Notes: a model not told the origin generated them from the sequence alone. Positions 23,396 to 63,489 are shown, counted from the first letter of the stretch. The stretch is DNA of 64,000 nt from Anaerolineae bacterium (GCA_041300865.1 JBFYTF010000172.1:113754-177753); one strand, 5' to 3'. Numbers and translations are program-made.

Positions 23396-23430
23396 ACGTA
23401 AGCTCTCTATTCGCCTGGAAAGAAACCGGC

Positions 23431-28633: not shown

Positions 28634-28821
28634 ATCCTGGCGCCGCGCAACGCGGTGCTGTACAGGGCGTCTGGCCCTTTGGTAAAGACGGCACACCGCT
28701 GGCCGTCCCTATATGTTGTCCTGAGTCTGGCACAGCGATGTGCCAGATCGGCGGAGCCTGCCCAGAGAAGGCGTGAGGCCCGGCCGGCTGCCGCGAATTG
28801 ATCCGCGAGGTGAAGAGGCTT

Positions 28822-29841: not shown

Positions 29842-29852
29842 GGTCACTGGGC

Positions 29853-30830: not shown

Positions 30831-30896
30831 AGAAAACGACGATAGTGATCCCGTGCGGCGAATGACTTGAGCGAGGCGTGTACAAGTGGCCGTAAA

Positions 30897-31862: not shown

Positions 31863-31882
31863 TACCAGCTGCAAGGTCCTGA

Positions 31883-33211: not shown

Positions 33212-33222
33212 GGATTGCTCCG

Positions 33223-35681: not shown

Positions 35682-35799
35682 GCAGTGCAAACCTCCTCGC
35701 GTGTTGGCCCTTGGCCCGAACACCGCTGGACCCCACGGCCGGCATGCCCCCAGAGCCCCGGGGCCAGGGCAGCCTGATCCGCCCCATGGGCAGCTTTCG

Positions 35800-36960: not shown

Positions 36961-36966
36961 GGAGAA

Positions 36967-41323: not shown

Positions 41324-41346
41324 AAGCCGAGAGGACCGACCTCGTC

Positions 41347-43236: not shown

Positions 43237-43252
43237 TGCGCCAGGGCCACAG

Positions 43253-44521: not shown

Positions 44522-45194
44522 CTTTGGCGTGTACCTGGCCCACGCCGTTGATTCTCCGTGGAAGGTCGCGAGCGAGTGGCGGCGCGGGTGGGCCTATCCG
44601 CGCGCCAGGCTGCTCTTTGCGCTCAATGGGATCGCGTGGGGCTCCGCCTGGCGCCTTTACGGCGTGCCCATTATCCAGAAGCACCGTGACAGCCAGATGG
44701 CGTTCGGCTCCGGCCTGAATCTGCGCTCGACCACACGCTCGAATCCCCTGGGGCCCAACCGGCCCGTCATGCTTGTAACGTGGCAGGCTGGCGCGCTGTT
44801 GGCTGTCGGCCGCGATTTTGGCATGACCGGGGGGTCAATCTGTGCCGCACGCGAGATCGTGATCGGCGATGGAGTAACCGTAGGCGCGAATTCCATCCTT
44901 ATTGACACCGACTTCCACGCGCTGGATCCGGAATGCAGGCTTAGGGGCCAGGATCAGGCGGCGACGGCTCCGGTCCGGATCGAGGACGAGGTCTTTATCG
45001 GGATGAGCTGCCTGGTTCTCAAAGGGGTAACCATCGGGCGGGGCTGCGTCGTGGGTGCAGGCAGCGTCGTGACGAACGATCTGCCGTCCGGCTGGGTCTG
45101 CGCCGGCAATCCGGCCCGGCCCATTCGCCCTCTTGAGCCCCGGCCTCGAGCCAGGCCGCCCAGCTTGCCCACAGCGCAGGCGGAGGCCCGTTGA
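44514..45194 (+). CDS. Left-handed beta-helix (hexapeptide) acetyltransferase
   Basis: The hexapeptide repeats are 'IGDGVTVGANSIL', 'IEDEVFIGMSCLVLKGVTIGRGCVVGAGSVV'. The GTG at 44514 follows AGGAGG with 6-nt spacing and overlaps the upstream stop. Confidence 0.75.
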   Translation: MSDFGVYLAHAVDSPWKVASEWRRGWAYPRARLLFALNGIAWGSAWRLYGVPIIQKHRDSQMAFGSGLNLRSTTRSNPLGPNRPVMLVTWQAGALLAVGRDFGMTGGSICAAREIVIGDGVTVGANSILIDTDFHALDPECRLRGQDQAATAPVRIEDEVFIGMSCLVLKGVTIGRGCVVGAGSVVTNDLPSGWVCAGNPARPIRPLEPRPRARPPSLPTAQAEAR

Positions 45195-45195
45195 G

Positions 45196-47058: not shown

Positions 47059-47074
47059 CGAGGGGGAGGCGGGC

Positions 47075-47926
47075 ATGTACGAGATCCTGGCAGAAGAGGT
47101 GACCATCGGCCGCGGCTCCGTCATCGAGGACGGGGTCAAGATTCAGGGGCGCTCCAACAAGCTGGCCAGGCGGGTGGAGATTGGCGACAATGCGTTCATT
47201 GGCTACAATACACGGGCGTTTGTCGACGAGCTCGTCATTGGCGACTATACCATGCTGCACAATAACGCCTTTGTCGCCGGCGACCTGCCCTGCCGCATCG
47301 GGCACTGCTGCTGGATCGGGCAGCACACCATTCTGAACTCGACGGGCGGGCTGACCCTGGGCAACGGCGTCGGCGTGGGAGCCTATAGCCAGCTCTGGTC
47401 CCACATCCGCCACGGCGACACGCTCCAGGGCTGCCGCTGGAACAGCAGCCGGCCTCTGATCGTCGAGGACGACGTCTGGTTTGTTGGTCATTGCATTGTG
47501 TCTCCCGTCCACGCCTATGCCCGGAGCATGGCCTTGGTGGGCTCGGTGATCACCAGGGATATGGAGCCGAACCACGTCTACGCCGGAGTGCCGGCTCGCG
47601 ACATCACCGACAAGGTGGGCCCGCAATTTCAGGAGGTCTCCCTTGAGGAAAAGGTTGCGGTGATGCGGGCCAAGCTGGACGAGTTCTATGCCCTCCATCC
47701 CGGGGAACCGGCCAGCATCGTCGTCGTCCGTTCCCGCGAAGAAGCGGCCCACCTGCCCCCTCAGGAGTACACCATCTTTGACGTCTCGACGCGCAGCTAC
47801 AACCGGCGCCGGACCGAGGAAGAGTTTCGCTTCATGAAACATCTATTGCAGCTGATTAAATTCTTCCCTCGCGACGACTCCGCGCCGGACCCCCCCAGGT
47901 CGTCCGCTAAAAGGAGGGGTGGCTGA
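47075..47926 (+). CDS. LbH acyl/acetyltransferase with ~90-aa C-terminal extension (candidate amino-sugar N-acetyltransferase)
   Basis: Hexapeptide repeats are present (IGDNAFIG, IGHCCWIG, LGNGVGVG). The ATG at 47075 follows GGGGGAGG. It lies between the PGT fusion and the DegT aminotransferase. Confidence 0.7.
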   Translation: MYEILAEEVTIGRGSVIEDGVKIQGRSNKLARRVEIGDNAFIGYNTRAFVDELVIGDYTMLHNNAFVAGDLPCRIGHCCWIGQHTILNSTGGLTLGNGVGVGAYSQLWSHIRHGDTLQGCRWNSSRPLIVEDDVWFVGHCIVSPVHAYARSMALVGSVITRDMEPNHVYAGVPARDITDKVGPQFQEVSLEEKVAVMRAKLDEFYALHPGEPASIVVVRSREEAAHLPPQEYTIFDVSTRSYNRRRTEEEFRFMKHLLQLIKFFPRDDSAPDPPRSSAKRRGG

Positions 47927-47944
47927 ATAGGCACCCAGCACACG

Positions 47945-49135
47945 ATGCGTACAGACTTCTTACCCTATGCCCTGCCGTCCATCGGCGAGGAAGAGATCGC
48001 CGAGGTCGTCGACTCGCTCCGGTCGGGCTGGCTGACCACCGGTCCCAAGGTCCAGCGACTGGAGCGTGACCTGGCCGCTTACCTGGGCGCCCGCCACACC
48101 CTGGCGGTCAGCTCCTGCACCGCGGCCCTGCACATCGCCCTCACCGCCCTGGGCATCGGCCCTGGGGACGAAGTGATCGTGCCGACCATGACCTTTTGCT
48201 CCACGGCCAACGTTGTCGTCCACTTGGGCGCCCGGCCCATCCTGGTGGATGTCGGCCCGGACTTTAACGTGACGGCTGGGGCCATCGAGGCGGCTCTGAC
48301 GCCTCGCACGCGGGCCATCGTGCCGGTGCACTATGGCGGCCAGCCCTGTGACCTGGATGCCATCTACAGGCTCGCCACCCGCCACCGCCTGCCCGTCGTC
48401 CAGGACGCCGCACATGCCGTCGGCGCGCACTACCAAGGCGCAAAGATCGGCTCGGATGCCCTTGCGGCGCCCCGATCTGTTGTCTGTTTTTCCTTCTACG
48501 CCATCAAGAACATGACCACCGGCGAGGGCGGCGCCATTGCCACCGCCGAGGACAAGCTGGCCGAAAAGATGCGCCTGCTCACGCTCCACGGCATGAGCCG
48601 TGACGCCTGGAAACGCTACACCGGCGCCGGCTCCTGGTACTACGAGGTCGTGCTGCCCGGCTACAAGGACAACATGACCGACATCCAGGCGGCCTTGGGC
48701 ATCCACCAGCTGCGCAAGCTGGACGGCTTTATCGAGGTGCGCCGGCGCTACGCCCGGCTCTACGACGACGCCTTTGCCGCCCTGCCGGAGGTCGAGACGC
48801 CCCCCGTCCGGCCCGGCCGGTCTCACGTCTATCACCTCTACCCCATCCGCCTAGCTTTGGATCGGCTAACCATCGACCGCTCGCAGTTTATCGAGGAGCT
48901 CCGGGCGCGCGGCATCGGCAGCAGCGTGCACTTTGTCCCGGTCCACCTCCACCCCTTCTACGCCAGTGAGTTTGGCTATTGTCCGGGTGATCTGCCCTGC
49001 GCCGAGGATCTTTACCGGCGCATCATCTCCTTGCCCCTTTATCCGGCCATGACAGAAGACGACGTTGCCGACGTGATCCAGGCCGTGTTCGATGTGGTGC
49101 AGCGCTTTCGGAAGACAAAGGAGGGGGTGTCTTGA
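47945..49135 (+). CDS. DegT/DnrJ/EryC1/StrS-family PLP sugar aminotransferase (PglE/WecE-like)
   Basis: 'LPSIGEEE', 'SCTAALHIAL', 'DAAHAVGA' and 'FSFYAIKNMTTGEGG' (PLP Lys) match the family. Confidence 0.9.
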   Translation: MRTDFLPYALPSIGEEEIAEVVDSLRSGWLTTGPKVQRLERDLAAYLGARHTLAVSSCTAALHIALTALGIGPGDEVIVPTMTFCSTANVVVHLGARPILVDVGPDFNVTAGAIEAALTPRTRAIVPVHYGGQPCDLDAIYRLATRHRLPVVQDAAHAVGAHYQGAKIGSDALAAPRSVVCFSFYAIKNMTTGEGGAIATAEDKLAEKMRLLTLHGMSRDAWKRYTGAGSWYYEVVLPGYKDNMTDIQAALGIHQLRKLDGFIEVRRRYARLYDDAFAALPEVETPPVRPGRSHVYHLYPIRLALDRLTIDRSQFIEELRARGIGSSVHFVPVHLHPFYASEFGYCPGDLPCAEDLYRRIISLPLYPAMTEDDVADVIQAVFDVVQRFRKTKEGVS

Positions 49136-50703
49136 ACCTGCGACGCTATCTGACGTTGGAAACCCTTGCCCGCGTGGTAGTCGACGCGGCGATCGTCGCC
49201 GTCAGCTACCTCGTCGCCCTCGTCCTCCGCCTGTTGTGGCGCATCGCCGCCATGCCCGACTTTACCGCTCGCCAGGGATTGCGCGATGTGGCCCAGACCT
49301 ATGCCCTCACCGCCTGGCTGCTGATCCTGATCTGCGTCGTGGTTTATGGCCTGAGCGGGTTCTACTCGCGAGGCCGCTTCTACGCCAGCCGTTTCAAGGC
49401 CATCGCCATCCTGCAGGCCGTCAGCATTTCCTACCTTCTCTTCGGCCTAGCCATGTACGTGTACGTCACCCGCCGCGGGCCGGGCGAGACTCCTGGCGTG
49501 GCACTCGTGGTCGCCTGGGCCCTGACCCTCGGCCTCACCGAGGGCGCACGCCTGTGGTCCGTATTGTGGCGGCAAGTCATCAAGCGCGAGGCACCGGCGC
49601 TCCGCCGGCTAGAGCAGGATGGGCGGGTCGACCACGTCCTCGTCGTCGGCGGGGCCGGCTACATCGGCTCGGTCCTTTGCCGCCAGCTCTTGCAACAGGG
49701 CTACTCGGTCCGGGTCCTGGACGCCCTGCTCTACGGCCGGGAACCGGTCGCCGACCTTCTGGGACATCACCGCTTCGAGCTGATCAAGGGCGACTCGCGC
49801 GACATTGGCGATGTCTTTCGCGCGATGCTGGACATGGATGCGGTGATCCACCTGGGCGAGCTGGTCGGCGACCCGGCCTGCGCCCTGGACGAGAAACTGA
49901 CCCTGGAGATCAATCTCGCTGCCACACGCATGCTCGCCGAGGCAGCCCGCGGGTACGGCATCAAGCGTTTTGTCTATGCCTCCTCCTGCAGCGTCTACGG
50001 GGCGGGCAGCGAGCTGCTCGACGAGCGCTCGGCCCTTAATCCCATTTCCCTTTATGCTCGAGCCAAGATCGGCTCGGAGCAGGCGCTTGCCGAGCTGGCC
50101 GGGCCCGACTTTCACCCGGTCATCCTCCGTCTGGCCACTGTCTATGGCTTGTCTCCCCGCCCGCGTTTCGACCTGGTGGTCAATTTGCTAACGGCGAAGG
50201 CTGCTAGTGAGGGCGAGATCACCGTCCTTGGCGGGCGCCAGTGGCGGCCCTTCGTCCATGTTGCCGACGTGGCGCGGGCCATCATCCTCTGCCTCGAGGC
50301 ACCGCTCGCCCTGGTGGGGGGCCAGACCTTTAACGTCGGCTCCGACGAGCAGAACCTGACCATCGCTGAGGTGGGCGATCTGGTCCAGAGCCTTATCCCC
50401 GGTGCTCGCCTGTTGTGTCGTCAACAGGACGGCGACCAGCGCGACTATCACGTCTCCTTTGCCCGTATCCGGCGCGAGCTGGGCTTTGTACCCGTGCACA
50501 CCGTGCATGACGGGGTGAGGGAGATCGAAGCTGCGCTTCGCTCCGGCCGGGTTGGGGACTATCGCGACAAGCGCTACAGCAACTACCAGTTTCTGAGCGA
50601 TCCGAGCGAGCGTTCTCTCATAGCGGCCCGCCACATCAACGGCCTGTATGCGGCGCCCGGAGTGGGCACCCCGGCGCGCGGCCTGCAGACGGCGGAGGCC
50701 TGA
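49132..50703 (+). CDS. Membrane-anchored extended SDR (NDP-sugar dehydratase/epimerase; PglF/WbpM-like topology)
   Basis: About 4 N-terminal TM helices are followed by 'VLVVGGAGYIGS', 'YARAK' (YxxxK). The TTG start overlaps the upstream stop and follows AAAGGAGGGGG. Confidence 0.8.
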   Translation: MNLRRYLTLETLARVVVDAAIVAVSYLVALVLRLLWRIAAMPDFTARQGLRDVAQTYALTAWLLILICVVVYGLSGFYSRGRFYASRFKAIAILQAVSISYLLFGLAMYVYVTRRGPGETPGVALVVAWALTLGLTEGARLWSVLWRQVIKREAPALRRLEQDGRVDHVLVVGGAGYIGSVLCRQLLQQGYSVRVLDALLYGREPVADLLGHHRFELIKGDSRDIGDVFRAMLDMDAVIHLGELVGDPACALDEKLTLEINLAATRMLAEAARGYGIKRFVYASSCSVYGAGSELLDERSALNPISLYARAKIGSEQALAELAGPDFHPVILRLATVYGLSPRPRFDLVVNLLTAKAASEGEITVLGGRQWRPFVHVADVARAIILCLEAPLALVGGQTFNVGSDEQNLTIAEVGDLVQSLIPGARLLCRQQDGDQRDYHVSFARIRRELGFVPVHTVHDGVREIEAALRSGRVGDYRDKRYSNYQFLSDPSERSLIAARHINGLYAAPGVGTPARGLQTAEA

Positions 50704-50717
50704 AGGTTCCGGCAGCG

Positions 50718-52010
50718 ATGGACGGTGACGTGATGCCAGCCGCCGAGACAGGGGGCGCCGCGTCCGGCGGCGTGGCGGCCCTTGGCTGCCTCCTGGCCGG
50801 TCGGCCCTGCCCGGCGGATCCGGGGTGGGATTCGGTCGTTTCCCTGGCGCGTGACCACGACCTGTCTCCCCTCCTCTACTGGCGGGCCACGCACCCGCCG
50901 GCCGGGTCGGTGCTGCCGGCCGAGCTCTTACAGGAGCTCAAGAACGATTTCTACCTGGCCCTACGGCGAACGATGCTGGCCGAGCGGCAGCTCGCCGAGC
51001 TGCTGGCAGCTCTGGGCCAGGCAGGAGTGCCCACCCTCGTCCTGAAGGGTTCCGCCGCCGGGGCCTTCTATCCGGACCCGGCCCTGCGTGTGTACGGCGA
51101 CCTAGACTTTCTGGTGCCGAAATCACAAGTCCTTGAGGCAGAGCAGGTGCTCCGGGCTCTCGGTTATCGCTCGCCTCTGTCACGATCGTGGTGGCAGGAG
51201 CACTTCCAGCACCTGCCGCCGATGACCCGAAATCACGGCGAGCTGTGCGTCGAGGTACACTGGAGCCTTGCCCTTCCCGATGCCCACGCCGGCGGCCTGC
51301 CTGCCGAGGATGTCTGGGAGCGGAGCGTGGCGTGGACTCTCGGGCCCGGAGCCGGCCAACCCGCCCTGCGCCTGGACGACGTCGACACGGTCCTGCATCT
51401 CTGCTACCACGCTGCCGTGCAGCACCGGCTGTACCTGGGGCTGCGGCCCCTGGCGGATCTGGCTCAAGTCATAAGCAGCTGGGATCGGGACAAATGGCAG
51501 GCTCTGCTGGGCCGGGCACGTGCCTACGAGTTGGCGAGGCCCGTCGAGCTGGTCGTGGCCCTGGCCGGCAGGTGGCTGTCCCTTGAGCTCCCCCTGGAGG
51601 TTACCAGGACCCTTGAGCCCCTGCTTCCCGTCCTGGACGACTGGCTGGTCCGCCTGGCCTTTCCGAAAGCCGGAGGACCTGCGGCACTTGTCGTGGCCGG
51701 TAGCGCGCCGGGTCTCGGCGCGGGCCTGCGCCATCTCCTCTGGCACCTCTTTCTGCCGCGCGAGGGAATGGCAGTTACCTACGGCATCCCGGCCCGGTCG
51801 CCTTTCATCTGGCTGGCGTACGCGTGGCGGCCCTTTGACCTCCTCCGCAAACATGGCGGCCGGATGTGGCGCGTGTTGCAGGATGATAGGTCGGCTCGCT
51901 CAGCCTGGACTGCTGAGGTCTGGCTCGAGCGTTGGCTGCGTGGTCGGGACGGAGCGCCGCTTGCCAGCAGGGCCGGGCTGGGGCTGGACAAGGAGCCGAT
52001 AAGCGAGTAA
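50718..52010 (+). CDS. Uncharacterised nucleotidyltransferase family protein (NTP_transf_5-like)
   Basis: 'VLKGSAAGAFYPDPALRVYGDLDFLVP' and 'VEVHWSL' are the family signature as I recall it. Confidence 0.65.
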   Translation: MDGDVMPAAETGGAASGGVAALGCLLAGRPCPADPGWDSVVSLARDHDLSPLLYWRATHPPAGSVLPAELLQELKNDFYLALRRTMLAERQLAELLAALGQAGVPTLVLKGSAAGAFYPDPALRVYGDLDFLVPKSQVLEAEQVLRALGYRSPLSRSWWQEHFQHLPPMTRNHGELCVEVHWSLALPDAHAGGLPAEDVWERSVAWTLGPGAGQPALRLDDVDTVLHLCYHAAVQHRLYLGLRPLADLAQVISSWDRDKWQALLGRARAYELARPVELVVALAGRWLSLELPLEVTRTLEPLLPVLDDWLVRLAFPKAGGPAALVVAGSAPGLGAGLRHLLWHLFLPREGMAVTYGIPARSPFIWLAYAWRPFDLLRKHGGRMWRVLQDDRSARSAWTAEVWLERWLRGRDGAPLASRAGLGLDKEPISE

Positions 52011-53829: not shown

Positions 53830-55125
53830 ATGATGCCCCGACTGAAAGGCTGGTCGCAGACCCTCACGAGCTGGCAGACTGTGGCACTTGGGCCGATCGT
53901 CGTGCCCCTCCTCTTCCCCGACCTGGTGCCCCAACTACTGGTGGTCCTCGCCCTGCTGGGACTCCCTGCACTGTGGCTCCTGTCACGGTGGGGATGTGGT
54001 GTCTTTGTGCCGGCCACTCCCCTGGATCTGCCCTGGCTAGTGGTGCTGCTCGTCTCCCTTGGCACCCTCCTGGCGGCGACTGCGCCTGCGCTGGCTTTGC
54101 CCCAGGTCTTCAAGGTCCTCATTGCCCTGGCCCTGTATTATGGGCTGGTGAACACCCTGCGCAGTGAGACACGTCTCGCCTGGGCAGGGATCGGCCTGCT
54201 GCTGGCGAGCGCAGCTATCGCCGCCGTGGGCCTCGCCGGTATGGGGCCTGGGGGCGCAAGCCCCGCCTCCGTGGCAGGCGGCTCAACAGACCGCCTCTTT
54301 GGCTTGATCACCCCCTTCTGGAACCGCGCGGGGTTCAACCCCAACATCGTCGGGGGGACGCTGGCCGTGATGTTGCCCCTCACCCTGGCGTATGCCTGGG
54401 GCACCGCGGGCTGGCGCCGGCTGCCGTTCATCGCGGCCCTGCTGGCCGAGGGCGCGGCGCTCCTCCTCACGCAATCCCGCGGCGCGATTCTCGGGTTTGC
54501 CGCCGGCGCCGCCGCCGTCGCCCTGGCCCGCGACCGGCGTTGGGGCCTGGTGATCCTTGGCGCCTGCTCCGCCGGTGGGGCTGCCGTCCTGCTCTATCCC
54601 GGGCCGGTCCTGGACATGCTCACGGCGGGGGGCGGGGGGATCATGGACAGTGCTCAGGGGCGGCTGGAGCTTTGGGTGCGGGCGGTGGCCATGGCGACCG
54701 ATTTTCCTTTTACCGGGGTGGGCATGGGCAGCTTTGCCCGGGCCCTGTGGCTGCTCTACCCTCTCGCTTCCGTCGGCCCGGCCACTGTTCTCGACCACGC
54801 CCACAACCTCTTCCTGCAGGCCGCCACGGACTACGGATTGCCTGGCCTGGTCGCCTGGCTGGCGCAGATGTTGCTGCTGCTCTGGATGGCAGTCGGCGCC
54901 GTGCGCGCTGTTCGCGGCGGCAGCCTGTGGCCTCTGGCCGCAGGCCTGCTCGGCGGGTTGGTTGCCTACCTGGTCCACGGCTTGACGGACAGCTTTACCT
55001 ACTATGCCAAGGGCCATACCGTGGTGTGGGGCTGCCTATCGGTGATCGCCGCGCTTTGGCTGGTCCTGCAGGACGGCAGACTGCGCGGGCCCCGGGGGGG
55101 CGCCGGCCCGGTGGGCGCGGAATAG
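53830..55125 (+). CDS. O-antigen ligase / Wzy_C-family membrane protein
   Basis: 'LLLTQSRGAILGF' and 'DHAHNLFLQAATDYGLPGL' are Wzy_C signatures. It has ~11 TM helices. Confidence 0.8.
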   Translation: MMPRLKGWSQTLTSWQTVALGPIVVPLLFPDLVPQLLVVLALLGLPALWLLSRWGCGVFVPATPLDLPWLVVLLVSLGTLLAATAPALALPQVFKVLIALALYYGLVNTLRSETRLAWAGIGLLLASAAIAAVGLAGMGPGGASPASVAGGSTDRLFGLITPFWNRAGFNPNIVGGTLAVMLPLTLAYAWGTAGWRRLPFIAALLAEGAALLLTQSRGAILGFAAGAAAVALARDRRWGLVILGACSAGGAAVLLYPGPVLDMLTAGGGGIMDSAQGRLELWVRAVAMATDFPFTGVGMGSFARALWLLYPLASVGPATVLDHAHNLFLQAATDYGLPGLVAWLAQMLLLLWMAVGAVRAVRGGSLWPLAAGLLGGLVAYLVHGLTDSFTYYAKGHTVVWGCLSVIAALWLVLQDGRLRGPRGGAGPVGAE

Positions 55126-55126
55126 C

Positions 55127-56476
55127 GTGCGCGCCGTCCTGGCTTGGCTCGGCCGGCCACTGCCCATCGTCCTCACGGCGCTGCTGCTGCGCCTGGCCGC
55201 GGCCTGGCTGTTACCGCCGCCGGCCGATTTCGCCTCACGCACCGATAGCGGGCTGACGGCCCTCAACGTGGTGTCGGGGGCGGGATACACCCACGATTTC
55301 TATGGCTGGCGCCCGGGCGCGCCGCTGCAGGCCTACATGCCGCCGCTGCACGTTGCCTGGCTATCCCTGAGCCTGCTTCTGCCCGATCCCCGCCTGGCGC
55401 TCAGCGTCCAGCAGGCCGCCGCGGGCACGTTGGCCGTGTGGCTGGTGTACCGGCTGGCAGCGGCGTTGGCCGGCCCGTTGACCGGCGCACTGGCGGGCTG
55501 GGCCATGGCGCTCTACCCAACGTATATCATCACGACCACGATACCCGAGTCGGTGGCCCTCCTGGTCGCCTGCCTGGCGGCGCTGCTGTTCCTGGCCTGG
55601 CGGCTCTGGGAAAGACCAGGCTTGGGCCGCGCCGCGGCCGCGGGGTTGGCCCTTGGACTCCTGGCCCTGGGCCGGCCTCACGCCCTGCTGCTGGCGCCGG
55701 CGCTGCTCGCCTGGCTGGCCTTCAGGCGCCCCCGGCCCTCAGGGCTGCCGCGGCTGGCCGCGGTCTTATTCCTGGCGGTGGGGCTCGTCGTGGGTCCCTG
55801 GATCTTGCGCAACTCTGTAGTCTTGAAGGAGCCGGCCTTTATCTCGACCAACGGCGGCCGCACCAGCTGGCTCGGCAACAACCCCTTCACCACCGGCTCC
55901 GGCGGCGACGTCTATGCTCGTCGGTTGGCAGCCTACAAGGGCATCGAGCCCGATCTTTCGTCGCCGGAAATAGTAGAGTTTCCCGCTGATTACCCCTTGC
56001 CCCACGGGCTGGAGGCCCAGGTAGCGGTGCTCACGGAGCAGGCCCTGGAACGCGCTTTATATCGGGCAGCCCTGGACTATGCCCGGGCCGAGCCGGCGGA
56101 GTGGCTGGGGCTGGAAGCCCGCAAACTTCTGAGCTTATGGTGGTTCCGGCCCAACCTGGGCGCCAATCCCCAGTACCAGGGAGAGTGGACAGCAGTGTAC
56201 CGCGTCGTGTACAGCGGAGTTGTGGCCGTGGCTTTGGCCGGCTTGGTCCTTTCCCTGCGGCAGGGTGGGTGGCGGCGCTGGGGGCTTCTCTACGCGGTCC
56301 TCGCCGTCCAGTCCGTCGTCTACCTTGGGTTTCACGTCCTCACCCGCTTTCGTTGGGAGATAGAGTTTATCCTGCTCATCCTGGCCTCCTTTGCCGTCGC
56401 CTGGGCCTACGAGAGGGCCGCCATGAAATCCGCCGAGGCCGCGGTCGGGCTCGCTTTTCACGAAGGAGTGCAATGA
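55127..56476 (+). CDS. Polytopic membrane glycosyltransferase, GT-C fold (PMT_2/ArnT-like)
   Basis: It is multi-TM. The first loop is 'RTDSGLTALNVVSGAGYTHDF'. The GTG start is 1 nt after the upstream stop. Confidence 0.6.
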   Translation: MRAVLAWLGRPLPIVLTALLLRLAAAWLLPPPADFASRTDSGLTALNVVSGAGYTHDFYGWRPGAPLQAYMPPLHVAWLSLSLLLPDPRLALSVQQAAAGTLAVWLVYRLAAALAGPLTGALAGWAMALYPTYIITTTIPESVALLVACLAALLFLAWRLWERPGLGRAAAAGLALGLLALGRPHALLLAPALLAWLAFRRPRPSGLPRLAAVLFLAVGLVVGPWILRNSVVLKEPAFISTNGGRTSWLGNNPFTTGSGGDVYARRLAAYKGIEPDLSSPEIVEFPADYPLPHGLEAQVAVLTEQALERALYRAALDYARAEPAEWLGLEARKLLSLWWFRPNLGANPQYQGEWTAVYRVVYSGVVAVALAGLVLSLRQGGWRRWGLLYAVLAVQSVVYLGFHVLTRFRWEIEFILLILASFAVAWAYERAAMKSAEAAVGLAFHEGVQ

Positions 56477-59013
56477 GGCCATTTCTGCTGTCCGTGGCGC
56501 TGTGGCTGACCTTGCTGTCGGGGCTGGCTGCGGCCGGCGACGGGCCGGTAGCTCCCCAGGCGCGAGCCCTCGCCGCCGGCGCAGCCTGCCGGCCCGCGCT
56601 GTTCGAGCGCCAGCGCTACGGGTTCGTGGCCACGCAAGGCTCGTGGCCGCAGACCTTTGATGTGGCGCGCCTGCATGCCGGCTGGGCTGCGGACCACGCC
56701 CTGGGCGCGCCTCCCTCCGGTATGGACCGTGCCCTCGTGCTGCGCACGCCTTACGGCTACCAGGTGGACCCAGCGCTGTTGGGCCCCATCGTAGACGCCA
56801 ATCCCGGCGCGACCTGGCTCATCAGCAACGAGCCCGATTCCATCTGGCAGGACGATCTGCCCCCGGCCGAGTATGCCCGCATTTACCACGACGCCTACGT
56901 CTTCCTGAAGGCGCGTGACGCCAGCGCCCGCGTGGCGGCCGGTGGCATTGTCCAGCCCACACCGCTGCGCCTCCAATACCTCGACCTCGTCCTCGACGCG
57001 TATCGAGCTCGCTACGGCCGCGCCCTGCCTGCCGATCTGTGGCACATCCACAACGCGATCCTCAACGAGGTCAGCTGCAGCTATGATCCGGCGAACTGCT
57101 GGGGTGCCCAGATCCCGACCGGCGTCGACGCTGACTTCGGCGTCCTCAGGGATATCGACGACAACGACAACCTGGACATGTTCAAAGCCCAGATCTGGGC
57201 TTTTCGCCAATGGCTGGCCAGCCGCGGCTACGCCGGGCTGCCTGTTATAGTCTCCGAGTTTGGTGTCCTCATGCCCGAGTCGTACGGCTTTGACCCGGCC
57301 CGCGTGACTGCGTTCATGACCGCCACCTTTGACTTTCTGGCCACGGCCTCCGACCCGCTTCTGGGCGATCCCCTTGACGGGGGCCGCCTGGTGCAGCGCT
57401 GGGCGTGGTTCAGCCTCGATGTGCCGGCCTACGATCCGGAAACGGCGCTGACAGGCTTTAACGGCAACCTTTTTGACCCCAAAACGGCGGATATCACGGC
57501 CTACGGCCTCCACTACGAGGGGCTCACCGCGAGCCTGCCCGCCCTGGACTATGCCGAGCTGGCGCTCATGCGCTGGCAAGTGCCGCCGGTAGGACGGGCC
57601 CTGACGCTGTCGGAGACTGTCACCCTGCCTGTGACGGTGCGCCTGGGCAACAGCGGCACCACGCCCGCCGCGGCCTTTGCTGTGCGCCTGCAGTACAATG
57701 GTGCACGTCACGGCGCTGCGGAGCAGGTTGTGACCGGCCTGCCGTCGTTGGGTTCCGTAGAGCTGACCTTCATCTTGTCCGACCTACTGCCCGGCGTCTA
57801 TGATCTCGACCTGGCCATTGACGCCCTCGACCAGGTGGACGAGCCGGCAGAGTGCGACAACCACCATGTCCGCCGCCTCATCGTGCCCACGCACGTCGTC
57901 TACTTGCCCCTGGTCGTGAACCGCGCCGGCCCGGCCTCCGCCCGGTTGCCCGCAAGTTCCATTTCTCCCCCTTCCTTCGCCGTGGACGAGAGCGGAGTGC
58001 CCGAGTCTTCTCCGCCTTCCCTGGTAGGGAAAGGGGCCGGGGGGGCGGGTTCCCCTGCCCTTCGGGAGTTCCCCTTGCCCCAGCCGGGCAGCTATCCGGG
58101 GCAGCTTGCCCTTGACACTGCCACCGGGGCGGTATGGGTTACCGAGCGTGACGGCAACCGGCTGGCCCGTCTCGATCCTACCGTCGGTGCCTGGGCCGAG
58201 TTCGTCATTCCTACCGGTGCCAGTGAGCCCTGGGGCCTCGCCCTGGATGGAGACGGAAGCCTGTGGTTTGCCGAGACGGCGGGCAACAAGATCGGCCGCC
58301 TGGATCTCGACGGCGGGACCATCGAGGAGTACGGCGGTCTCACGGCGGACAGCGAGCCGTGGGGTGTGGCGGTTGCCGATGGTTACGTGTGGTTCACCGA
58401 GCGGGCGGGCAACAACATCGGCCGCCTCGATTCCACCACCGGCACCCTTGTTGAGTACCCACTCAACGTGGCCGGCTCGCGCCCCTCCGGCCTTTCGGCC
58501 TCGTCCGTCTCGTTTAGCGGGGTCACGCTCTGGTATCTGTGGTTCGCGGAGCCGGGGTCCAACCTGCTGGGCCGCATGCGCTTGGGCGACCCTAAGGTTT
58601 ACGACCTAGCGCCACGCACCGCATACAGCGCTCCCCAGGACGTGGTGTGGGAGGGCGGCACGCCATGGATCACCGAGCTGGCGGCCAACAAGATCGCCAC
58701 GTTCGGTTTCGGCACAACCTCCCTCTGGACAGAGGTGGCCGTGACCACGCCTGACAGCGAGCCGTACGGCATCACCCTCCAGGGCAGCGATCTGGTGTGG
58801 TTTACCGAGCGGGCGGGCAACCGCCTGGGGCGCTACCGGGTCTCCACCGGAGCCCTGGTGGAGTACTCGCTGCCTACGCCGGGAAGCCAGCCGACCGACA
58901 TCGCCGTCGACAGTGCCGGCTGTGCCTGGTACGCCGCCCCAGGAGCCAACCGCATCGGGCGTCTGTGCCCCACGTCCCTTGCGCCCATCTACCTGCCGGT
59001 GGTCATACACTAG
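56473..59013 (+). CDS. Secreted multidomain protein: GH-A 'Glyco_hydro_cc'-like catalytic core + CARDB-like domain + Vgb (streptogramin-lyase)-like beta-propeller
   Basis: The signal peptide is MRPFLLSVALWLTLLSGLAAA. GH motifs are 'WLISNEPD' and 'VIVSEFG'. The CARDB-like stretch includes 'VTLPVTVRLGNSGT'. There are about six repeats of 'EPWG[LV]A...G..WF[AT]E.AGN.IGRLD'. The ATG has an ATGA overlap after GAAGGAG. Confidence 0.75.
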   Translation: MRPFLLSVALWLTLLSGLAAAGDGPVAPQARALAAGAACRPALFERQRYGFVATQGSWPQTFDVARLHAGWAADHALGAPPSGMDRALVLRTPYGYQVDPALLGPIVDANPGATWLISNEPDSIWQDDLPPAEYARIYHDAYVFLKARDASARVAAGGIVQPTPLRLQYLDLVLDAYRARYGRALPADLWHIHNAILNEVSCSYDPANCWGAQIPTGVDADFGVLRDIDDNDNLDMFKAQIWAFRQWLASRGYAGLPVIVSEFGVLMPESYGFDPARVTAFMTATFDFLATASDPLLGDPLDGGRLVQRWAWFSLDVPAYDPETALTGFNGNLFDPKTADITAYGLHYEGLTASLPALDYAELALMRWQVPPVGRALTLSETVTLPVTVRLGNSGTTPAAAFAVRLQYNGARHGAAEQVVTGLPSLGSVELTFILSDLLPGVYDLDLAIDALDQVDEPAECDNHHVRRLIVPTHVVYLPLVVNRAGPASARLPASSISPPSFAVDESGVPESSPPSLVGKGAGGAGSPALREFPLPQPGSYPGQLALDTATGAVWVTERDGNRLARLDPTVGAWAEFVIPTGASEPWGLALDGDGSLWFAETAGNKIGRLDLDGGTIEEYGGLTADSEPWGVAVADGYVWFTERAGNNIGRLDSTTGTLVEYPLNVAGSRPSGLSASSVSFSGVTLWYLWFAEPGSNLLGRMRLGDPKVYDLAPRTAYSAPQDVVWEGGTPWITELAANKIATFGFGTTSLWTEVAVTTPDSEPYGITLQGSDLVWFTERAGNRLGRYRVSTGALVEYSLPTPGSQPTDIAVDSAGCAWYAAPGANRIGRLCPTSLAPIYLPVVIH

Positions 59014-61419
59014 GTGCCGATCGTGATCGATTGGTGGGGTGTCTTTGCCAATGCCCTCTGGCTCGTGGGCCTCGCCGTGGCGCTGGCCGCCCTGAGCATG
59101 GCCACCTTCCGCGCCGGTCAGGCCGGGCACACTCTGAGGGCGGAGTTGGCGCCTCCGGCCTTCCAGGTCCCTCTGCTGGCCGGCCTCCTCCTCTTCTGCC
59201 TGGGCTTGCTCCTGGCAAGCCAATCATGGGCGGAAAGGCTTGTCTGGGCGGCCCTGGCCCTCCTCTGTGGCTTCGTCTCGATTCGTGGCGGGCTGGCGCT
59301 GGCCAGGGCCGGGCGCCAGGCTTCACCCGAGGCCGTCCCATCGCCGGCATCGGCGGCCGGCACCGCGCCGGATGGCTCACTGCCCGTGACCCGCAACGGC
59401 CGCGCGCGGCCCGCTGTCTCTCGCAGCCGGGCGGGCTGCCTGTTGCTTGCTGCCGGCCTGCTGCTCGTGGCCGGCTGGGCGGCCGTCACCGCGGCGCAGC
59501 TCTACGGCCATGGACGTTCGCTGCTGGACCACCTGCAAGCCCTGGAAGGCCTCGCCGCCGGCGACTTGGCCTCGATGGACGTGGCCGGCCTGGCAGGTGC
59601 TGGGGAGCACCTGGGCGGCATGCGCCGCGACCTGGAGGCCATCGCCACCCGGCTGGGCCCGCTGCCCCAGGCCGGCCGGCTGTTGGCCTGGGTGCCGGGC
59701 TACGGCGGAGATCTGGCCGCCGCGCCGGACCTTCTCGACCTGGCGCTGGATGTGTCCGCCGCGGGGGATGGCACCTTCCAGGCCCTTTCCCCGGCACTGG
59801 ACTTGCTGGCCGGCGGTTCAGAGGGGAGCCTCGCCCTTCTCTCTGCCGGCGAGCAGGTTCTGCCCCTCCTGGTCGAGGCCCGGCCCGCCCTCGAGCAGGC
59901 CCGGGCAGACCTGGCTGCTGCGCAACAGGTCCGGGCGGGGATCGAAGCCGGCAGCCTCTCGCCGCGGGTAGCGGGGCTATTGGCGCGCCTGGACGGCACT
60001 CTGCCCCTATTTGCCGCCGCTGTAGACGGGGCGCTGCTGCTGCCCAACCTGTTGGGCGTCGACGGTCCACGCACCTACCTGGTCATGGCCCAGAATAACC
60101 AGGAGCTGCGCGCCACAGGTGGTTTCATCAGCGGCGTCGGAGAGCTGCGGGTGGCCGGCGGGCGGCTGGAGAGCGCAGACACCGGCGGTCAAGGAGGGCT
60201 GGACCTCCGCGACAGCTATGCCGTCGACAACCTGGCGGTGCCCCATGAGGTAGCCCCCGCCGATTTTCAGCAAGTCCTGATGGGTGACCTCATCTTTTTC
60301 CGGGATGCGAATTGGGACCCGGACTTTCCCACTACAGCACGGCGTGCGCTGGAAATCTATGCTCGGGACCAGGGGATCGAGGCTGATGGCGTCGTCGCCC
60401 TGGACCTCACCGCCTTGGAGTTGCTCGTCGCAGCCGCGGGCTCCCTATCTGTGGCCGGCGTTGACGGGCCCGTGGATGCTCGCAACGTGATGCGCGTCAT
60501 CCAGGGGCAGTGGAGCCAGCCGGCAGAGGGCGATGGCAGCGATTGGTGGCTGCACCGCAAAGACTTCATGGGGGACGTAGCCGCCGCCTTGTTCGGGAAG
60601 CTGGCTGAGGCCGAGGGCGTCGAACCGGCGGCCCTGGTCGGCGCCGTCCAGCGCGCCCTGGACGAAAAACACCTCCTGGTCTATCTGCGCGATCCCGCTG
60701 CCGCGGCCTTGCTTCGCGCCCGGAACTGGGACGGCGCGCTGCCGGCCCCCGCCTTCGAGGGCGATTTCCTGATGCTCGTGGACACCAACGCCGGCTTCAA
60801 CAAGGTCGATCCCCGCATCCAGCGCTCGCTCTCTTACCAGGTCGACCTGGCAAGCCGTGAACGTGCTCGCGCACGGGCGACCGCGACCTACCGCCACCGG
60901 GGGCAACAAGCTGTAGGCGATTGTATCCAGGAGGCCCGTTATGGCGAGACGTATGAGGACATGCAGGAGCGCTGTTACTGGGACTATGCCCGCCTGTACG
61001 TGCCGGAGGGCAGCCGGCTGGTGGAGGGGCCAGGCCTGCTAGCTGCACCCCTGGGCAGCCTCATGGCCCGCAGCAGCCTGTCGCTGCCCCTGGAGCCCGC
61101 GCTGGACGCCGGTGATTGGGCCGCCTGGACTGCCTTTTTCTCGCTGGCGCCTACGGAGGAGCGCACCGTCGCCTGGACCTATGACCTGCCCGCGTACGCC
61201 ATCGCCGCCCGGTCCGACGGGCTCCTGGAGTACCGTCTGCGGGTGGCCAAGCAGCCGGGAACGGATGCCATCCCCCTGCGACTCGAGATCCGCCTGCCCA
61301 ACGGCGCCGAGCTGGTGGCGGGCTCCCTTGCGGTGGACACCGATCTGCGCCAAGACCGCGACTTTGTGGTCCTGTACCGGCCGCAGCCCGCCGGGCTGGA
61401 AACGGAAGGGAGGCCGTAA
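59014..61419 (+). CDS. DUF4012-domain membrane-anchored protein
   Basis: It has N-terminal TM helices. 'YLVMAQNNQELRATGGFISGVGEL' is the DUF4012 hallmark as I recall it. The GTG start directly abuts the upstream stop. Confidence 0.7.
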   Translation: MPIVIDWWGVFANALWLVGLAVALAALSMATFRAGQAGHTLRAELAPPAFQVPLLAGLLLFCLGLLLASQSWAERLVWAALALLCGFVSIRGGLALARAGRQASPEAVPSPASAAGTAPDGSLPVTRNGRARPAVSRSRAGCLLLAAGLLLVAGWAAVTAAQLYGHGRSLLDHLQALEGLAAGDLASMDVAGLAGAGEHLGGMRRDLEAIATRLGPLPQAGRLLAWVPGYGGDLAAAPDLLDLALDVSAAGDGTFQALSPALDLLAGGSEGSLALLSAGEQVLPLLVEARPALEQARADLAAAQQVRAGIEAGSLSPRVAGLLARLDGTLPLFAAAVDGALLLPNLLGVDGPRTYLVMAQNNQELRATGGFISGVGELRVAGGRLESADTGGQGGLDLRDSYAVDNLAVPHEVAPADFQQVLMGDLIFFRDANWDPDFPTTARRALEIYARDQGIEADGVVALDLTALELLVAAAGSLSVAGVDGPVDARNVMRVIQGQWSQPAEGDGSDWWLHRKDFMGDVAAALFGKLAEAEGVEPAALVGAVQRALDEKHLLVYLRDPAAAALLRARNWDGALPAPAFEGDFLMLVDTNAGFNKVDPRIQRSLSYQVDLASRERARARATATYRHRGQQAVGDCIQEARYGETYEDMQERCYWDYARLYVPEGSRLVEGPGLLAAPLGSLMARSSLSLPLEPALDAGDWAAWTAFFSLAPTEERTVAWTYDLPAYAIAARSDGLLEYRLRVAKQPGTDAIPLRLEIRLPNGAELVAGSLAVDTDLRQDRDFVVLYRPQPAGLETEGRP

Positions 61420-61443
61420 CGGGGCGATGAGAGGAGAAACGCC

Positions 61444-62118
61444 GTGAACGATAGCGCGCACGACCGCCGCATCTTGGTTCTGGCGCTGCTGGCCGTCCTG
61501 GCCCTGCGGTTGGTGGCTTGGACGGGCGGTGAGGCTGGCCTGGTGCATGCCGGCCAGACGATTCCCACCCGGACGCCCACCGGGCAGCCGGTGACGCCGC
61601 CGCCGGTAGGGCCGAGCCGCACACCGCCGCCGGGTGAGCCTACCCAGCAGCCCTCTCCCACGACGGCCCCGCCGGCGGCGACGTCCCCCGAGCCGGCCGG
61701 CGCCACAGCGTCTGCCACGCCTCTGTCAGGAGGCAGCCCGGCGCCGCCTACTGCCACGCCGGCTGTGGGCACGCCCACGCCCATGTCCGGCACGCCCCCG
61801 TCCACCGCGAGCGCGGTTACCGCGCCTGCCGAGTCACCGCCCGCAGCTGTGGAAAGCATCACAGCCGGTCCCGGCGAGCCCACCTCGGCCGCGCCCGCGG
61901 TCACCCTCACGCCCGAGATGCCAGGCCCGACGGCGGAACCACTCCCCACGCCCCTACTGGTGGGCGGCGAGCCAGAAGGCGCCGCGGTAGGAGGCTCGCA
62001 AAGCGCGACCGGAGGCCTGGCCGCGGTCCTGCTGTCGCCCTGCCTGTGGATCGGGCTGGGGTTGCTCCTCATGGCTGCGGGTGCGGCGATCCTGCTAACC
62101 AGGCGGCGCGCAGCCTGA
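61444..62118 (+). CDS. Pro/Thr/Ala-rich low-complexity surface protein with signal peptide and C-terminal TM anchor plus basic tail
   Basis: 224 aa. The signal peptide is ILVLALLAVLALRLVAW..VHA. About 150 aa of PT/A/S-rich sequence follow. The C-terminus is 'QSATGGLAAVLLSPCLWIGLGLLLMAAGAAILLTRRRAA'. The GTG follows GAGAGGAG. Codon-level support is weak in low-complexity sequence. Confidence 0.55.
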   Translation: MNDSAHDRRILVLALLAVLALRLVAWTGGEAGLVHAGQTIPTRTPTGQPVTPPPVGPSRTPPPGEPTQQPSPTTAPPAATSPEPAGATASATPLSGGSPAPPTATPAVGTPTPMSGTPPSTASAVTAPAESPPAAVESITAGPGEPTSAAPAVTLTPEMPGPTAEPLPTPLLVGGEPEGAAVGGSQSATGGLAAVLLSPCLWIGLGLLLMAAGAAILLTRRRAA

Positions 62119-63440
62119 TGCGACGGACGGTCACTATCACGGCCCTGCTGCTCCTGACCGGTGGACTGGGCCTGGTGGTCGGCGGCATACTCGTCCTGCA
62201 GCAAGGGACCGGATTGGCTGCGCTGTCGGGCACGCCGTCCGCCACGGCGTCGCCGCCACCGACGCTCACCGAGCAGATTCTGCCGCCACCGCCCACGGCG
62301 ACCCCGGCACCGGCCGGCCTGCAACCCTCGGAAGGCGGCGCTGGCACGCCCGTCTCCGCGTCCACGCTCCCACCGGCCGTTGCGCCGCCGTCGCCCGGGG
62401 AGAGCACTGCACCCCCGGCGCAGCCGTCCGCGGCCTCTGCGTCGGTGCTCAGCCCGACGGCGAGCCCGTCGCTATCGCCCACCTCTTCCCCCACCGCGCT
62501 GCCCAACACGCCCACGCCCTTGGCGCTCTACTCTCTGCGAGAACGCGTAGGCGTGGGCAGCGGGCTACGCCGCGTGACGCCCGAGCTTGTCAGCTTGTTG
62601 GGCTTTGGCTGGTACCTTGATTGGACCGTGCGCTCCGAGGGGTTGCGCGCGGCCGAGGTCAGTTACATGCCCATGATCCGCCTGCGCAATGGCCAGATCA
62701 CGCCCTCTGGCGACGCCCTGCTGGCGGCCGTGGATGCCCTGCCTGGAGCGCTGTGGCTCATCGGCAACGAGCCGGACGTGAAGTGGCAGGACGACGTCAC
62801 ACCCGAGGCCTACGCCCAGGCCTATCACGATCTCTATGCCCTCCTCAAGGCGCGAGATCCCACCTGCCAGGTGGCCATCGCCGGGGTCTCGCAGCCTACG
62901 CCTCTCCGCCTGCGCTACCTCGACCGGGTCTTACAGGCCTACCATCAGCGCTATGGTCACGAGATGCCGGTCGACGTCTGGAACGTGCACAATTTCGTGT
63001 TGCGCGAGGAGCGGGGCAGTTGGGGTGTGGACATTCCCCCCGGAATGGACGACGCTGCCGGGCGGCTGTATGACATCGACGACCACGACGACCTCGCCCT
63101 CTTTCGCCAACAGCTCGTCGACTTCCGCCGCTGGCTGAAGGAGCGCGGCCAGCAGGACAAACAGCTGATCGTCACCGAGTACGGCATTCTCATGCCCGGC
63201 GAGTACGGCTTTCCCCCCGAAGCCGTACGCCAGTTCATGCTCGACACCTTCGAGCTGATGCGCACGCTGGCGGACCCGGACCTGGGCCAGCCCGCTGACG
63301 GGGGCCGGCTGGTGCAGCGCTGGTGCTGGTTCAGCCTACAGGACGAGCGCTATCCTACCGGCGACCTTGTCCAGCCGGGCAGCGGGCAGCGCACGCTCCT
63401 CGGAGATGCCTTTGCGGGGTATACAACCTCTGAGCGGTGA
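62118..63440 (+). CDS. Anchored/secreted GH-A 'Glyco_hydro_cc'-like hydrolase, paralog of the N-domain of the 56473 protein
   Basis: It has an N-terminal TM/signal and a ~130-aa PT/S-rich linker. 'WLIGNEPD', 'LIVTEYG' and 'GGRLVQRWCWFSL' are colinear with 56473-57600. The ATG overlaps the upstream stop (TGATG). Confidence 0.75.
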   Translation: MRRTVTITALLLLTGGLGLVVGGILVLQQGTGLAALSGTPSATASPPPTLTEQILPPPPTATPAPAGLQPSEGGAGTPVSASTLPPAVAPPSPGESTAPPAQPSAASASVLSPTASPSLSPTSSPTALPNTPTPLALYSLRERVGVGSGLRRVTPELVSLLGFGWYLDWTVRSEGLRAAEVSYMPMIRLRNGQITPSGDALLAAVDALPGALWLIGNEPDVKWQDDVTPEAYAQAYHDLYALLKARDPTCQVAIAGVSQPTPLRLRYLDRVLQAYHQRYGHEMPVDVWNVHNFVLREERGSWGVDIPPGMDDAAGRLYDIDDHDDLALFRQQLVDFRRWLKERGQQDKQLIVTEYGILMPGEYGFPPEAVRQFMLDTFELMRTLADPDLGQPADGGRLVQRWCWFSLQDERYPTGDLVQPGSGQRTLLGDAFAGYTTSER

Positions 63441-63454: not shown

Positions 63455-63489
63455 GAAAAAAAGCTCCCATATGTGTGGGAGCTTTTTTG
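63455..63489. terminator. Bidirectional rho-independent terminator
   Basis: The sequence is AAAAAAA-GCTCCCA-loop-TGGGAGC-TTTTTT. It lies between the end of the + operon and the 3' end of the minus-strand tRNA-Gln. Confidence 0.85.

Follow-up and report, generated by a model that had tools for sequence, protein, structure and literature searches.

Does a surface polysaccharide operon of the Chloroflexota attach its product to proteins that are encoded at its own distal end? This question is raised by a stretch of 64,000 nt from an Anaerolineae bacterium (GCA_041300865.1, JBFYTF010000172.1:113754-177753), which is hereafter called the window and has a G+C content of 65%. In the block 53830-63440 a gene for a Wzy_C-family membrane protein is followed by a gene for a GT-C fold glycosyltransferase and by genes for four exported proteins (56473, 59014, 61444, and 62118; genes are named by their first coordinate), as was already recognized in the first-pass annotation of the sequence. 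That annotation inferred that the glycan might be linked to co-encoded Pro/Thr-rich proteins by an O-oligosaccharyltransferase (O-OTase) of the PglL/PilO type, together with protein mannosyltransferases (PMTs) like those of family GT39. In the reading preferred here, to which we assign a probability of about 0.5 as a whole, the region of 52.1-63.4 kb is the module that assembles, attaches, and trims the polymer on the outer face, within a Wzx/Wzy-type surface heteropolysaccharide operon of Anaerolineae-type Chloroflexota. That the block is a polysaccharide assembly module is very likely.

All genes between about 28.8 kb and 63.44 kb are on the + strand and form one operon. It encodes components by which a Wzx/Wzy pathway is recognized, i.e., a priming phosphoglycosyltransferase combining GT4 and Bac_transf domains (45196-47058; TIGR03025, E 7e-76), a Wzx flippase of the MOP family (31883-33211; Polysacc_synt_3, E 3e-17), and a polysaccharide co-polymerase fused to a BY-type tyrosine autokinase (52105-53802; TIGR01007, Wzz, GNVR, and AAA_31). 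The latter resembles Wzc and CpsCD and scores 200 bits against TIGR01007, the cut-off being 108. From the BY-kinase gene through 62118 the gaps between the genes are 27, 1, -4, 0, 24, and -1 nt, and the operon is closed by a bidirectional intrinsic terminator hairpin (63457..63488), which a convergent tRNA-Gln gene (CTG; 63491-63564, minus strand) faces. The operon of 28.8-63.4 kb is primarily a Wzx/Wzy-type polysaccharide operon, with amino-sugar genes, and the block is its distal part, not a dedicated protein glycosylation locus.

The first gene of the block (53830-55125, +) encodes a Wzy_C membrane protein of the WaaL/Wzy/PglL superfamily (431 aa; Pfam Wzy_C, E 6e-19). The SRGA and HAHN motifs noted at first pass are present as S216-R217-G218-A219 and H323-A324-H325-N326. 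The only solved structure matched by sequence was CmWaaL (PDB 7TPG; E 4.5e-11, about 190 residues), and in this alignment R191, R265, H311, and H313 of CmWaaL correspond to R217, R278, H323, and H325, all four of which are invariant in 22 homologs with 29-77% identity. The H-[NSQ]-x9-G-x-x-G motif of WaaL is also present (H325-N326-x9-G336-x-x-G339). R217, R278, and H325 are at the same time the counterparts of the Arg, Arg, and His residues of PglL (R224, R298, and H349), which are common to WaaL and PglL and hence do not discriminate between them (PMC3643930). The motif that separates PglL from WaaL, PglL_A (PF15864), was found in none of the 22 subfamily members at E values up to 10, and Wzy_C_2 did not match any of them. 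PilO also lacks PglL_A, and O-OTase activity is thus compatible with its absence. The nearest curated NCBIfam families, both below threshold, were the exosortase-associated TIGR03097 ("putative O-glycosylation ligase"; the best match) and IctB, and the model of the O-OTase TfpM matched weakly (E 0.023). No lipopolysaccharide genes were seen in the window, and a lipid A-core, to which WaaL transfers its glycan, is not to be expected in Chloroflexota, the only phylum in which this Wzy_C subfamily was found. The nearest relatives of the window proteins are from metagenome-assembled genomes of Anaerolineae and Ardenticatenales, and the DNA of the window is also contained in such a genome at NCBI (GCA_041300705.1). 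From its sequence, the 53830 product is predicted to be either a polymerase or a ligase of a glycan linked to undecaprenyl pyrophosphate.

The gene neighborhood was evaluated in 83 loci centered on Wzy_C homologs. The most common neighbors encode Bac_transf enzymes (46 loci), BY-kinases (36), DegT proteins (34), and dehydratases (34), and the BY-kinase homologs, counted within 10 kb, are mostly directly upstream of the Wzy_C homolog. A module of Bac_transf, epimerase, DegT, BY-kinase, and Wzy_C genes recurs across the Chloroflexota. The Wzy_C subfamily is kept at 30-45% identity across loci whose transferase sets differ, and it is the sole recognizable Wzy-superfamily gene in most of the loci seen. 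A gene of the NTP_transf_5 family ("uncharacterised nucleotidyltransferase") is found near the subfamily in 16 of the 83 loci and often adjoins the BY-kinase or the Wzy_C gene. Two distant loci (L007, 14216-15997; L008, 16322-18100) contain a second, longer Wzy_C paralog of about 590 aa with tetratricopeptide (TPR) repeats, a few kb from the Wzy_C homolog. TPR motifs have been reported for WsfB and PglL (PMC2943079), and by analogy these paralogs may be the true protein-directed transferases of those genomes. The window does not contain a TPR-type Wzy_C paralog.

An unexpected link exists between Wzy_C and the DUF4012 protein of the block (59014-61419, +; Pfam DUF4012, E 3e-31), which has four N-terminal transmembrane (TM) helices, a helical stalk, an alpha/beta core (residues ~350-560), and a C-terminal beta-sandwich. 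At least eight DUF4012 homologs among the 120 matches listed also carry Wzy_C (P0150, P0156, P0191, P0199, P0208, P0214, P0218, and P0227; loci L088-L090), and their lengths are 1211-1307 aa. In P0156 Wzy_C (~200-511) interrupts DUF4012, of which the N-terminal TM pair (1-105) precedes the insertion and the ectodomain (582-1214) follows it. Such fusions, which like gene content, synteny, and residue conservation are direct observations, argue for one membrane machine, and it is likely that Wzy_C and DUF4012 act as one unit. Loci L088 and L089 contain the same module as the window, in the order amino-sugar genes, NTP_transf_5, BY-kinase, a protein with glycoside hydrolase (GH), CARDB, and propeller domains, the fusion, a Pro/Thr-only protein (219-235 aa), and a Glyco_hydro_cc enzyme with a Pro/Thr linker. 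L090 retains the fusion, the Pro/Thr-only gene, and the GH with the Pro/Thr linker. The order of these three genes is the same in all three fusion loci examined.

An AlphaFold2 model of DUF4012, built from 30 sequences (predicted local distance difference test, pLDDT, 82), was compared with the PDB using Foldseek. It matched structures of LCP (LytR-CpsA-Psr) proteins (3pe5, 3tel, and 3nxh; E 5e-3 to 4.5e-2, probability 1.0, TM-scores 0.32-0.49), one of which, 3tel, is Cps2A with bound polyprenyl pyrophosphate. Chain E of the human oligosaccharyltransferase complex, which we take to be ribophorin I, was also matched. An hhalign comparison of a DUF4012 core profile (124 sequences) with an LCP alignment (13 sequences, from annotated plasmid genes and one locus) was co-linear over 166 columns and had a score of 32.7 (P 1e-3, probability 22%), and 15 controls with reversed, block-shuffled, or unrelated targets had scores of 9-19. 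The invariant DUF4012 residues are E364, R366, D400, R430, D431, R515, and K516; their alignments to the LCP motifs are mutually discordant. A strict motif scan of a part of the loci (<2.5 Mb) yielded a single match to canonical LCP genes. In a Bifidobacterium capsule locus, DUF4012 is encoded between the priming transferase and wzz (PMC5412050). An LCP-like nature of DUF4012 fits both this position and the near absence of canonical LCP genes from the loci scanned. An LCP-like DUF4012 domain is reasonably probable, and the relation would probably be a remote one. When 1.84 billion representatives were searched with the DUF4012 profile, 15,087 clusters (50% identity) matched at E values up to 1e-3, and no functional description of the family was found in the literature searched.

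The gene downstream of DUF4012 (61444-62118, +) encodes a Pro/Thr-only surface protein, which consists of a signal peptide (cleavage between VHA and G), the sequence GQTIPTRTP, a Pro/Thr/Ala/Ser tract, a C-terminal TM helix, and an RRR tail. The first-pass description of a tract of about 150 aa between signal peptide and C-terminal anchor agrees with the 140 P/T/S-rich residues that were counted (residues in scanning windows with at least 50% P/T/S). Orthologs are encoded directly after DUF4012 in eight loci (L005, L084, L011, L075, L029, L088, L089, and L090). Both ends of the protein and the position of its gene are conserved in the family, and the Pro/Thr tract in the middle is variable. 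The orthologs have in common an AXA-type signal peptide cleavage site, the C-terminal TM helix, an Arg-rich tail, and the motif x-T-[IV]-P-T-x-T-P at a distance of 0-10 residues from the predicted mature N-terminus, of which T-[IV]-P-T is invariant. When 2.5 Mb of loci were translated in six frames, the tag pattern had 37 matches, versus 0-2 for permuted patterns, and most of the matches closely follow DUF4012. The tag, QT[IV]PTxTP, was found in the window (61555-61578) and in L005, L011, L029, L075, L080, L084, L088-L090, L096, and L097, and also in L102-L105, L107, L108, L112, L117, L123, L126, L130, L135, L144, L146, L152, L153, and L156. Its cargo is varied and includes Pro/Thr-only proteins, SH3b domains, a beta-rich domain with LPPxxLPxTG at its end, and a hydrolase. 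Reading "NQT" within the tag as an N-glycosylation sequon was rejected, since GQT, RQT, and AT occur as well and conservation of the Asn is lacking. A PEP-CTERM, LPXTG, or GlyGly-CTERM nature of the C-terminus was rejected as well; sorting-signal models matched only weakly (E 0.004-0.05), and the C-terminus of the 61444 type is SP[CY]LW, TM helix, and RRR, without PEP. The tag looks like a recognition or attachment signal specific for Chloroflexota, and the 61444 product is a candidate for a glycan acceptor or anchor.

The other two exported proteins of the block are predicted to process glycans. The 56473-59013 gene (+) encodes a secreted multidomain enzyme with a signal peptide, a Glyco_hydro_cc-like domain (NEPD, SEFG), CARDB, and a Vgb_lyase-type beta-propeller, and the 62118-63440 gene (+) a membrane-anchored glycoside hydrolase with an N-terminal TM anchor, a P/T/S linker, and a Glyco_hydro_cc domain (NEPD, TEYG; Pfam E 3e-7). 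The 56473 product is paralogous to the catalytic domain of 62118, and in L005 the two domain types are 44-48% identical. Proteins of the 56473 type are kept beside the BY-kinase in L088, L089, and L084, and the architecture of 62118 is conserved in L005, L084, L011, L010, L088, and L089. The linkers of the hydrolases have a conserved motif of their own, TE(Q/P)ILPPPPT. P/T/S-rich tracts are present in only four of the 37 window proteins. The 62118 linker, previously put at about 130 aa, has 114 P/T/S-rich residues, and the linker reported for the Ser/Thr kinase at 24305 is likewise real (123 residues). The distant gene 5731-7290 was thought to contain three copies of a repeat; two exact copies of TRTARPLPTATPLP are present, and the third is degenerate (TGTARPLATALPSP). 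It encodes a lipoprotein-type hydrolase without a Pfam match, which has the lipobox VLGC, a Pro/Thr linker with this tandem 14-aa repeat, and an NEPD motif. Because such linkers occur also on an unrelated kinase and on this lipoprotein hydrolase, they look like general membrane-to-wall spacers.

The GT-C enzyme (55127-56476, +) matches PMT_2 (PF13231) above the cut-off (E 7e-8; 33.2 bits versus 26.1), as was expected from the first-pass annotation. The match is a generic one, as PMT (PF02366), PMT_4TMC, NCBIfam, and PDB searches with this protein did not yield a match. A PMT_2 gene adjoins Wzy_C only in the window and in two close relatives, L005 and L006, and GT-C is absent from the equivalent modules of L088, L089, and L090. 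The genes without a Pfam match that precede the Wzy_C-DUF4012 fusions in L089 (8361-10004) and L090 (288-1652) were considered as GT-C homologs; this was rejected, as they encode soluble hydrolases with the NEPD motif of window gene 5731, a relation that was judged by eye. GT-C is thus outside of the conserved core, and 55127 probably encodes a lineage-specific modifying transferase of the outer face. Three to four GT-C/PMT_2-like enzymes had been claimed for the window, but family-level support for PMT_2 was obtained only for 55127 and for 28-1842 (minus strand); 38601-40166 and 8376-11570 encode multi-TM proteins without a family match. The GT2 gene 4062-5024 (minus strand) had been likened to polyprenyl-P-sugar synthases. 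Its product has a C-terminal TM hairpin and its best matches are indeed AglJ, PpgS, PgfS, and ArnC, but all of them are below the curated cut-offs.

The operon contains a further candidate for a Wzy polymerase. The 36967-38562 gene (+) encodes a membrane protein with 14 helices, the weak matches of which are all to models of Wzy polymerases (TIGR04370, E 9e-4; NF046084, E 4e-3; PF14296 in 2 of 16 homologs). Its identification as a polymerase by fold was tried and rejected, as the AlphaFold2 model (pLDDT 76) had no PDB match at E < 0.08. Together with the adjacent 38601 it lies in the part of the operon with the lowest G+C content (59%), and neither protein has a significant Pfam, NCBIfam, or PDB match; sequence searches of the PDB gave nothing useful for 36967, 38601, or the GT-C enzyme. 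Only 18 homologs of 36967 were found in 5.8 billion proteins, one of them in a metagenome-assembled genome of a Methanomethyliaceae archaeon. Either of the two candidates, 53830 or 36967, may polymerize the repeat units.

If these results are combined, the preferred reading is as follows. The GT4+Bac_transf enzyme and the set of GT2 and GT4 transferases would build repeat units on polyprenyl phosphate, one sugar would be provided by the 4-amino-sugar branch (dehydratase, aminotransferase, and acetyltransferases), and Wzx would move the units across the membrane, where polymerization would be controlled by the co-polymerase/BY-kinase. Wzy_C and DUF4012 would work as one unit, in which the LCP-like ectodomain might move the finished chain from lipid pyrophosphate to a hydroxyl acceptor of the envelope, and hydrolase- or lyase-type enzymes on Pro/Thr stalks might trim or release the polymer. 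A precedent for attachment to a protein exists in Actinomyces oris, in which the LCP phosphotransferase LcpA glycosylates the product of the adjacent gene, GspA, a surface protein that is anchored by its C-terminus (PMC6381275). By this analogy the best candidate for an acceptor would be the C-terminally anchored Pro/Thr protein with the QT[IV]PTxTP tag that follows DUF4012, although it is doubtful that this protein is the acceptor. Attachment of the polymer to peptidoglycan and a purely structural role of the Pro/Thr protein are equally compatible with the observations, and the polymer may also have no covalent acceptor. A still bolder and unlikely extension is a proteoglycan-like system that is spread across many Chloroflexota, in which DUF4012 would be a highly divergent and hitherto unrecognized LCP-type transferase that attaches a Wzx/Wzy polysaccharide to QT[IV]PTxTP-tagged surface proteins. 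The 61444 product would be a minimal carrier made of tag, Pro/Thr rod, and membrane anchor, and in some lineages DUF4012 and a WaaL-like Wzy_C would be united in one polypeptide.

Several observations weigh against the preferred reading. The LCP domain PF03816 did not match any of 30 DUF4012 members and a PDB profile search was also negative, the hhalign probability of 22% and the Foldseek TM-scores of 0.32-0.49 are low, and two hhalign runs place the first LCP motifs differently, so that the equivalents of the catalytic Arg are not reliably mapped. This Wzy_C subfamily is within 8 kb of DUF4012 in only 11 of 80 DUF4012 loci, and a Pro/Thr-rich, C-terminally anchored open reading frame is right downstream in only 18 of 71 (strict criteria). 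Should Wzy_C itself ligate the glycan, a further ligase of the LCP-like kind would be redundant. The case for protein glycosylation is circumstantial; no computation shows a modified protein. It is possible, if rather improbable, that the operon is an ordinary capsule or exopolysaccharide locus without a protein acceptor, in which Wzy_C is the polymerase, DUF4012 is a non-catalytic scaffold or serves peptidoglycan attachment, the Pro/Thr-only protein has an accessory role as a spacer or scaffold subunit, and the tracts are stalks. This would agree with the co-polymerase/BY-kinase homologs, which 36 of the 83 loci have at a distance of up to 10 kb from Wzy_C, with Wzy_C being the only recognizable Wzy-superfamily gene in most loci seen, and with the lack of a significant family or fold match for 36967. 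A fusion of a polymerase with an LCP protein would make mechanistic sense, and hydrolases such as PslG, BcsZ, and PelA are usual members of exopolysaccharide loci. However, polymerases usually vary with the repeat unit, and Wzy_C is conserved, at 30-45% identity and with invariant WaaL residues, despite differing transferase sets. In addition, the part of the operon that is variable and has a lower G+C content contains a separate candidate polymerase, and it would be left unexplained why the proteins encoded next to DUF4012 have an invariant T-[IV]-P-T tag at their mature N-terminus.

The mechanism proposed at first pass, in which a PglL/PilO-like Wzy_C protein and PMT-like GT-C enzymes fed by a polyprenyl-P-sugar synthase O-glycosylate Ser/Thr in the Pro/Thr tracts, is very unlikely. 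The presence of the Arg/Arg/His residues common to WaaL and PglL would be expected under it, as would an acceptor-like gene close by, which is also found for many PglL genes (PMC3643930). It can further draw on the weak TfpM match, on TIGR03097 as the best sub-threshold match, on the monoderm precedents WsaB and WsfB (PMC2943079), and on the resemblance of the GT2 at 4062 to polyprenyl-P-sugar synthases. However, this GT2 gene is 50 kb away on the opposite strand, the frequent BY-kinase neighbors fit polymer assembly, and the Pro/Thr linkers are generic in this genome. PglL_A is missing in 22 of 22 members, and the mechanism thus fails its one discriminating sequence test. The GT-C on which it also relies is neither conserved with the module nor of the GT39 type (no PMT or PMT_4TMC match). 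What survives of the first-pass inference is its more general part, a glycan on a co-encoded protein, which is circumstantially supported by the tagged gene after DUF4012, the fusions, the LCP likeness, and the precedent of LcpA and GspA.

The proximal part of the operon (28819..52010, +), for which gene calls are based on Pfam and NCBIfam profile matches, is predicted to make the lipid-linked glycan. It starts with two epimerase/dehydratase genes, a gene for an FkbM methyltransferase (from 30867), the Wzx gene, and then GT2 and GT4 genes. The two multi-TM proteins 36967 and 38601 (38601-40166) follow, and then a GT4, an AsnB-like amidotransferase (41347-43236), a GT4, a hexapeptide acetyltransferase, the GT4+Bac_transf enzyme, and a second hexapeptide protein. 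A sugar 4-aminotransferase similar to ArnB and PseC (47945-49135), a TM-anchored dehydratase (49132-50703), NTP_transf_5 (50733-52010), and the co-polymerase/BY-kinase lead over to the block. In total, this part includes one GT2, three GT4s, and two hexapeptide acetyltransferases. Sub-threshold matches to XrtA/PEP-CTERM families were obtained for 41347-43236 (amidotransferase), 52105-53802 (tyrosine kinase), 53830-55125 ("O-glycosylation ligase"), and 45196-47058 (sugar transferase), and for 41347 and 53830 they were the top NCBIfam matches.

A second group of glycan-related genes is present at 1-19335. In addition to the PMT_2 GT-C gene (28-1842), the GtrB/AglJ-like GT2 gene (4062-5024), and the gene for the multi-TM protein of about 1000 aa (8376-11570) it includes genes for a GT4 (1679-3229), a GH5-like cellulase (11646-13178), an alpha-L-rhamnosidase-like protein (13210-16344), and a second Bac_transf priming enzyme with a CoA_binding_3 domain (17809-19335), the last four on the minus strand. 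Two tRNA-Ala genes (GGC and CGC) lie within 23320-23506 on the minus strand. A mechanically called open reading frame for an alpha/beta hydrolase (22636-23385, minus strand) overlaps the first of them, and its real start must therefore be further in.

The building and anchoring of surface glycans and sheaths is largely obscure in the monoderm-like Chloroflexota, which are mostly uncultured and are abundant in activated sludge, in sediments, and in hot springs. A large family would gain a function if DUF4012 is indeed an LCP-like transferase and works with Wzy_C. Were the tagged Pro/Thr proteins its acceptors, LCP-type protein glycosylation would have a second, independent example, with substrates that are predictable from genomes by their tag. 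Otherwise, the locus is still a well-defined exopolysaccharide operon, the conserved module of which is useful as a marker. The Wzx/Wzy locus, the Wzy_C family, the hydrolases, and the Pro/Thr linkers are of known kinds. The fusion of Wzy_C with DUF4012, an LCP-like reading of DUF4012, and the tag family are not described in the literature that could be searched.

A comparison with known systems reveals likenesses as well as clear differences. With WaaL (CmWaaL, 7TPG) the 53830 product has the four catalytic residues and the H-N-x9-G-x-x-G motif in common, but the alignment covers only about 190 residues, and a lipid A-core acceptor is not expected here. PglL, PilO, TfpO, and TfpM are also Wzy_C proteins with Arg/Arg/His, and a possible acceptor gene is near in the same orientation. 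In contrast to them, 53830 lacks PglL_A and is encoded next to a BY-kinase within a polysaccharide operon, the candidate acceptor is no pilin, and the host belongs to the Chloroflexota and is not a proteobacterium. Actinobacterial GT39 systems resemble the window in the presence of a GT-C enzyme and a polyprenyl-P-sugar-synthase-like GT2 along with Pro/Thr-rich exported proteins, but the GT-C match is only to the generic PMT_2 and the gene is not conserved with the module. As in PEP-CTERM/exosortase loci, an exopolysaccharide locus is coupled to low-complexity proteins with a C-terminal TM helix and an Arg-rich tail. However, the PEP motif is absent, all matches are below the curated cut-offs, and neither an exosortase nor a PEP-CTERM protein was found among the window proteins scanned.

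Two further parallels are the Wzx/Wzy-dependent capsule loci of monoderm bacteria, e.g., the cps operon of Streptococcus pneumoniae, and the LcpA-GspA pair. The cps operon (CpsA of the LCP type, the CpsB-D kinase system, the priming transferase CpsE, Wzy, and Wzx) unites the same set of priming enzyme, MOP flippase, BY-kinase, Wzy-superfamily enzyme, and transferases in a single operon, and an LCP-type step would be common to both. It differs in that the operon of the window has a DUF4012 protein in place of a canonical LCP gene, that Wzy_C is fused with DUF4012 in relatives, and that the module has three to four hydrolase- or lyase-type enzymes and an anchored Pro/Thr-only protein. With LcpA-GspA it has in common that a gene for an LCP-like ectodomain is directly beside a gene for a C-terminally anchored surface protein, and transfer from lipid pyrophosphate would be a further likeness. 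In contrast, DUF4012 is not recognizable as LCP by its sequence, the anchor is a TM helix with RRR instead of LPXTG, and the candidate acceptor is of nearly pure Pro/Thr low complexity and carries an N-terminal tag.

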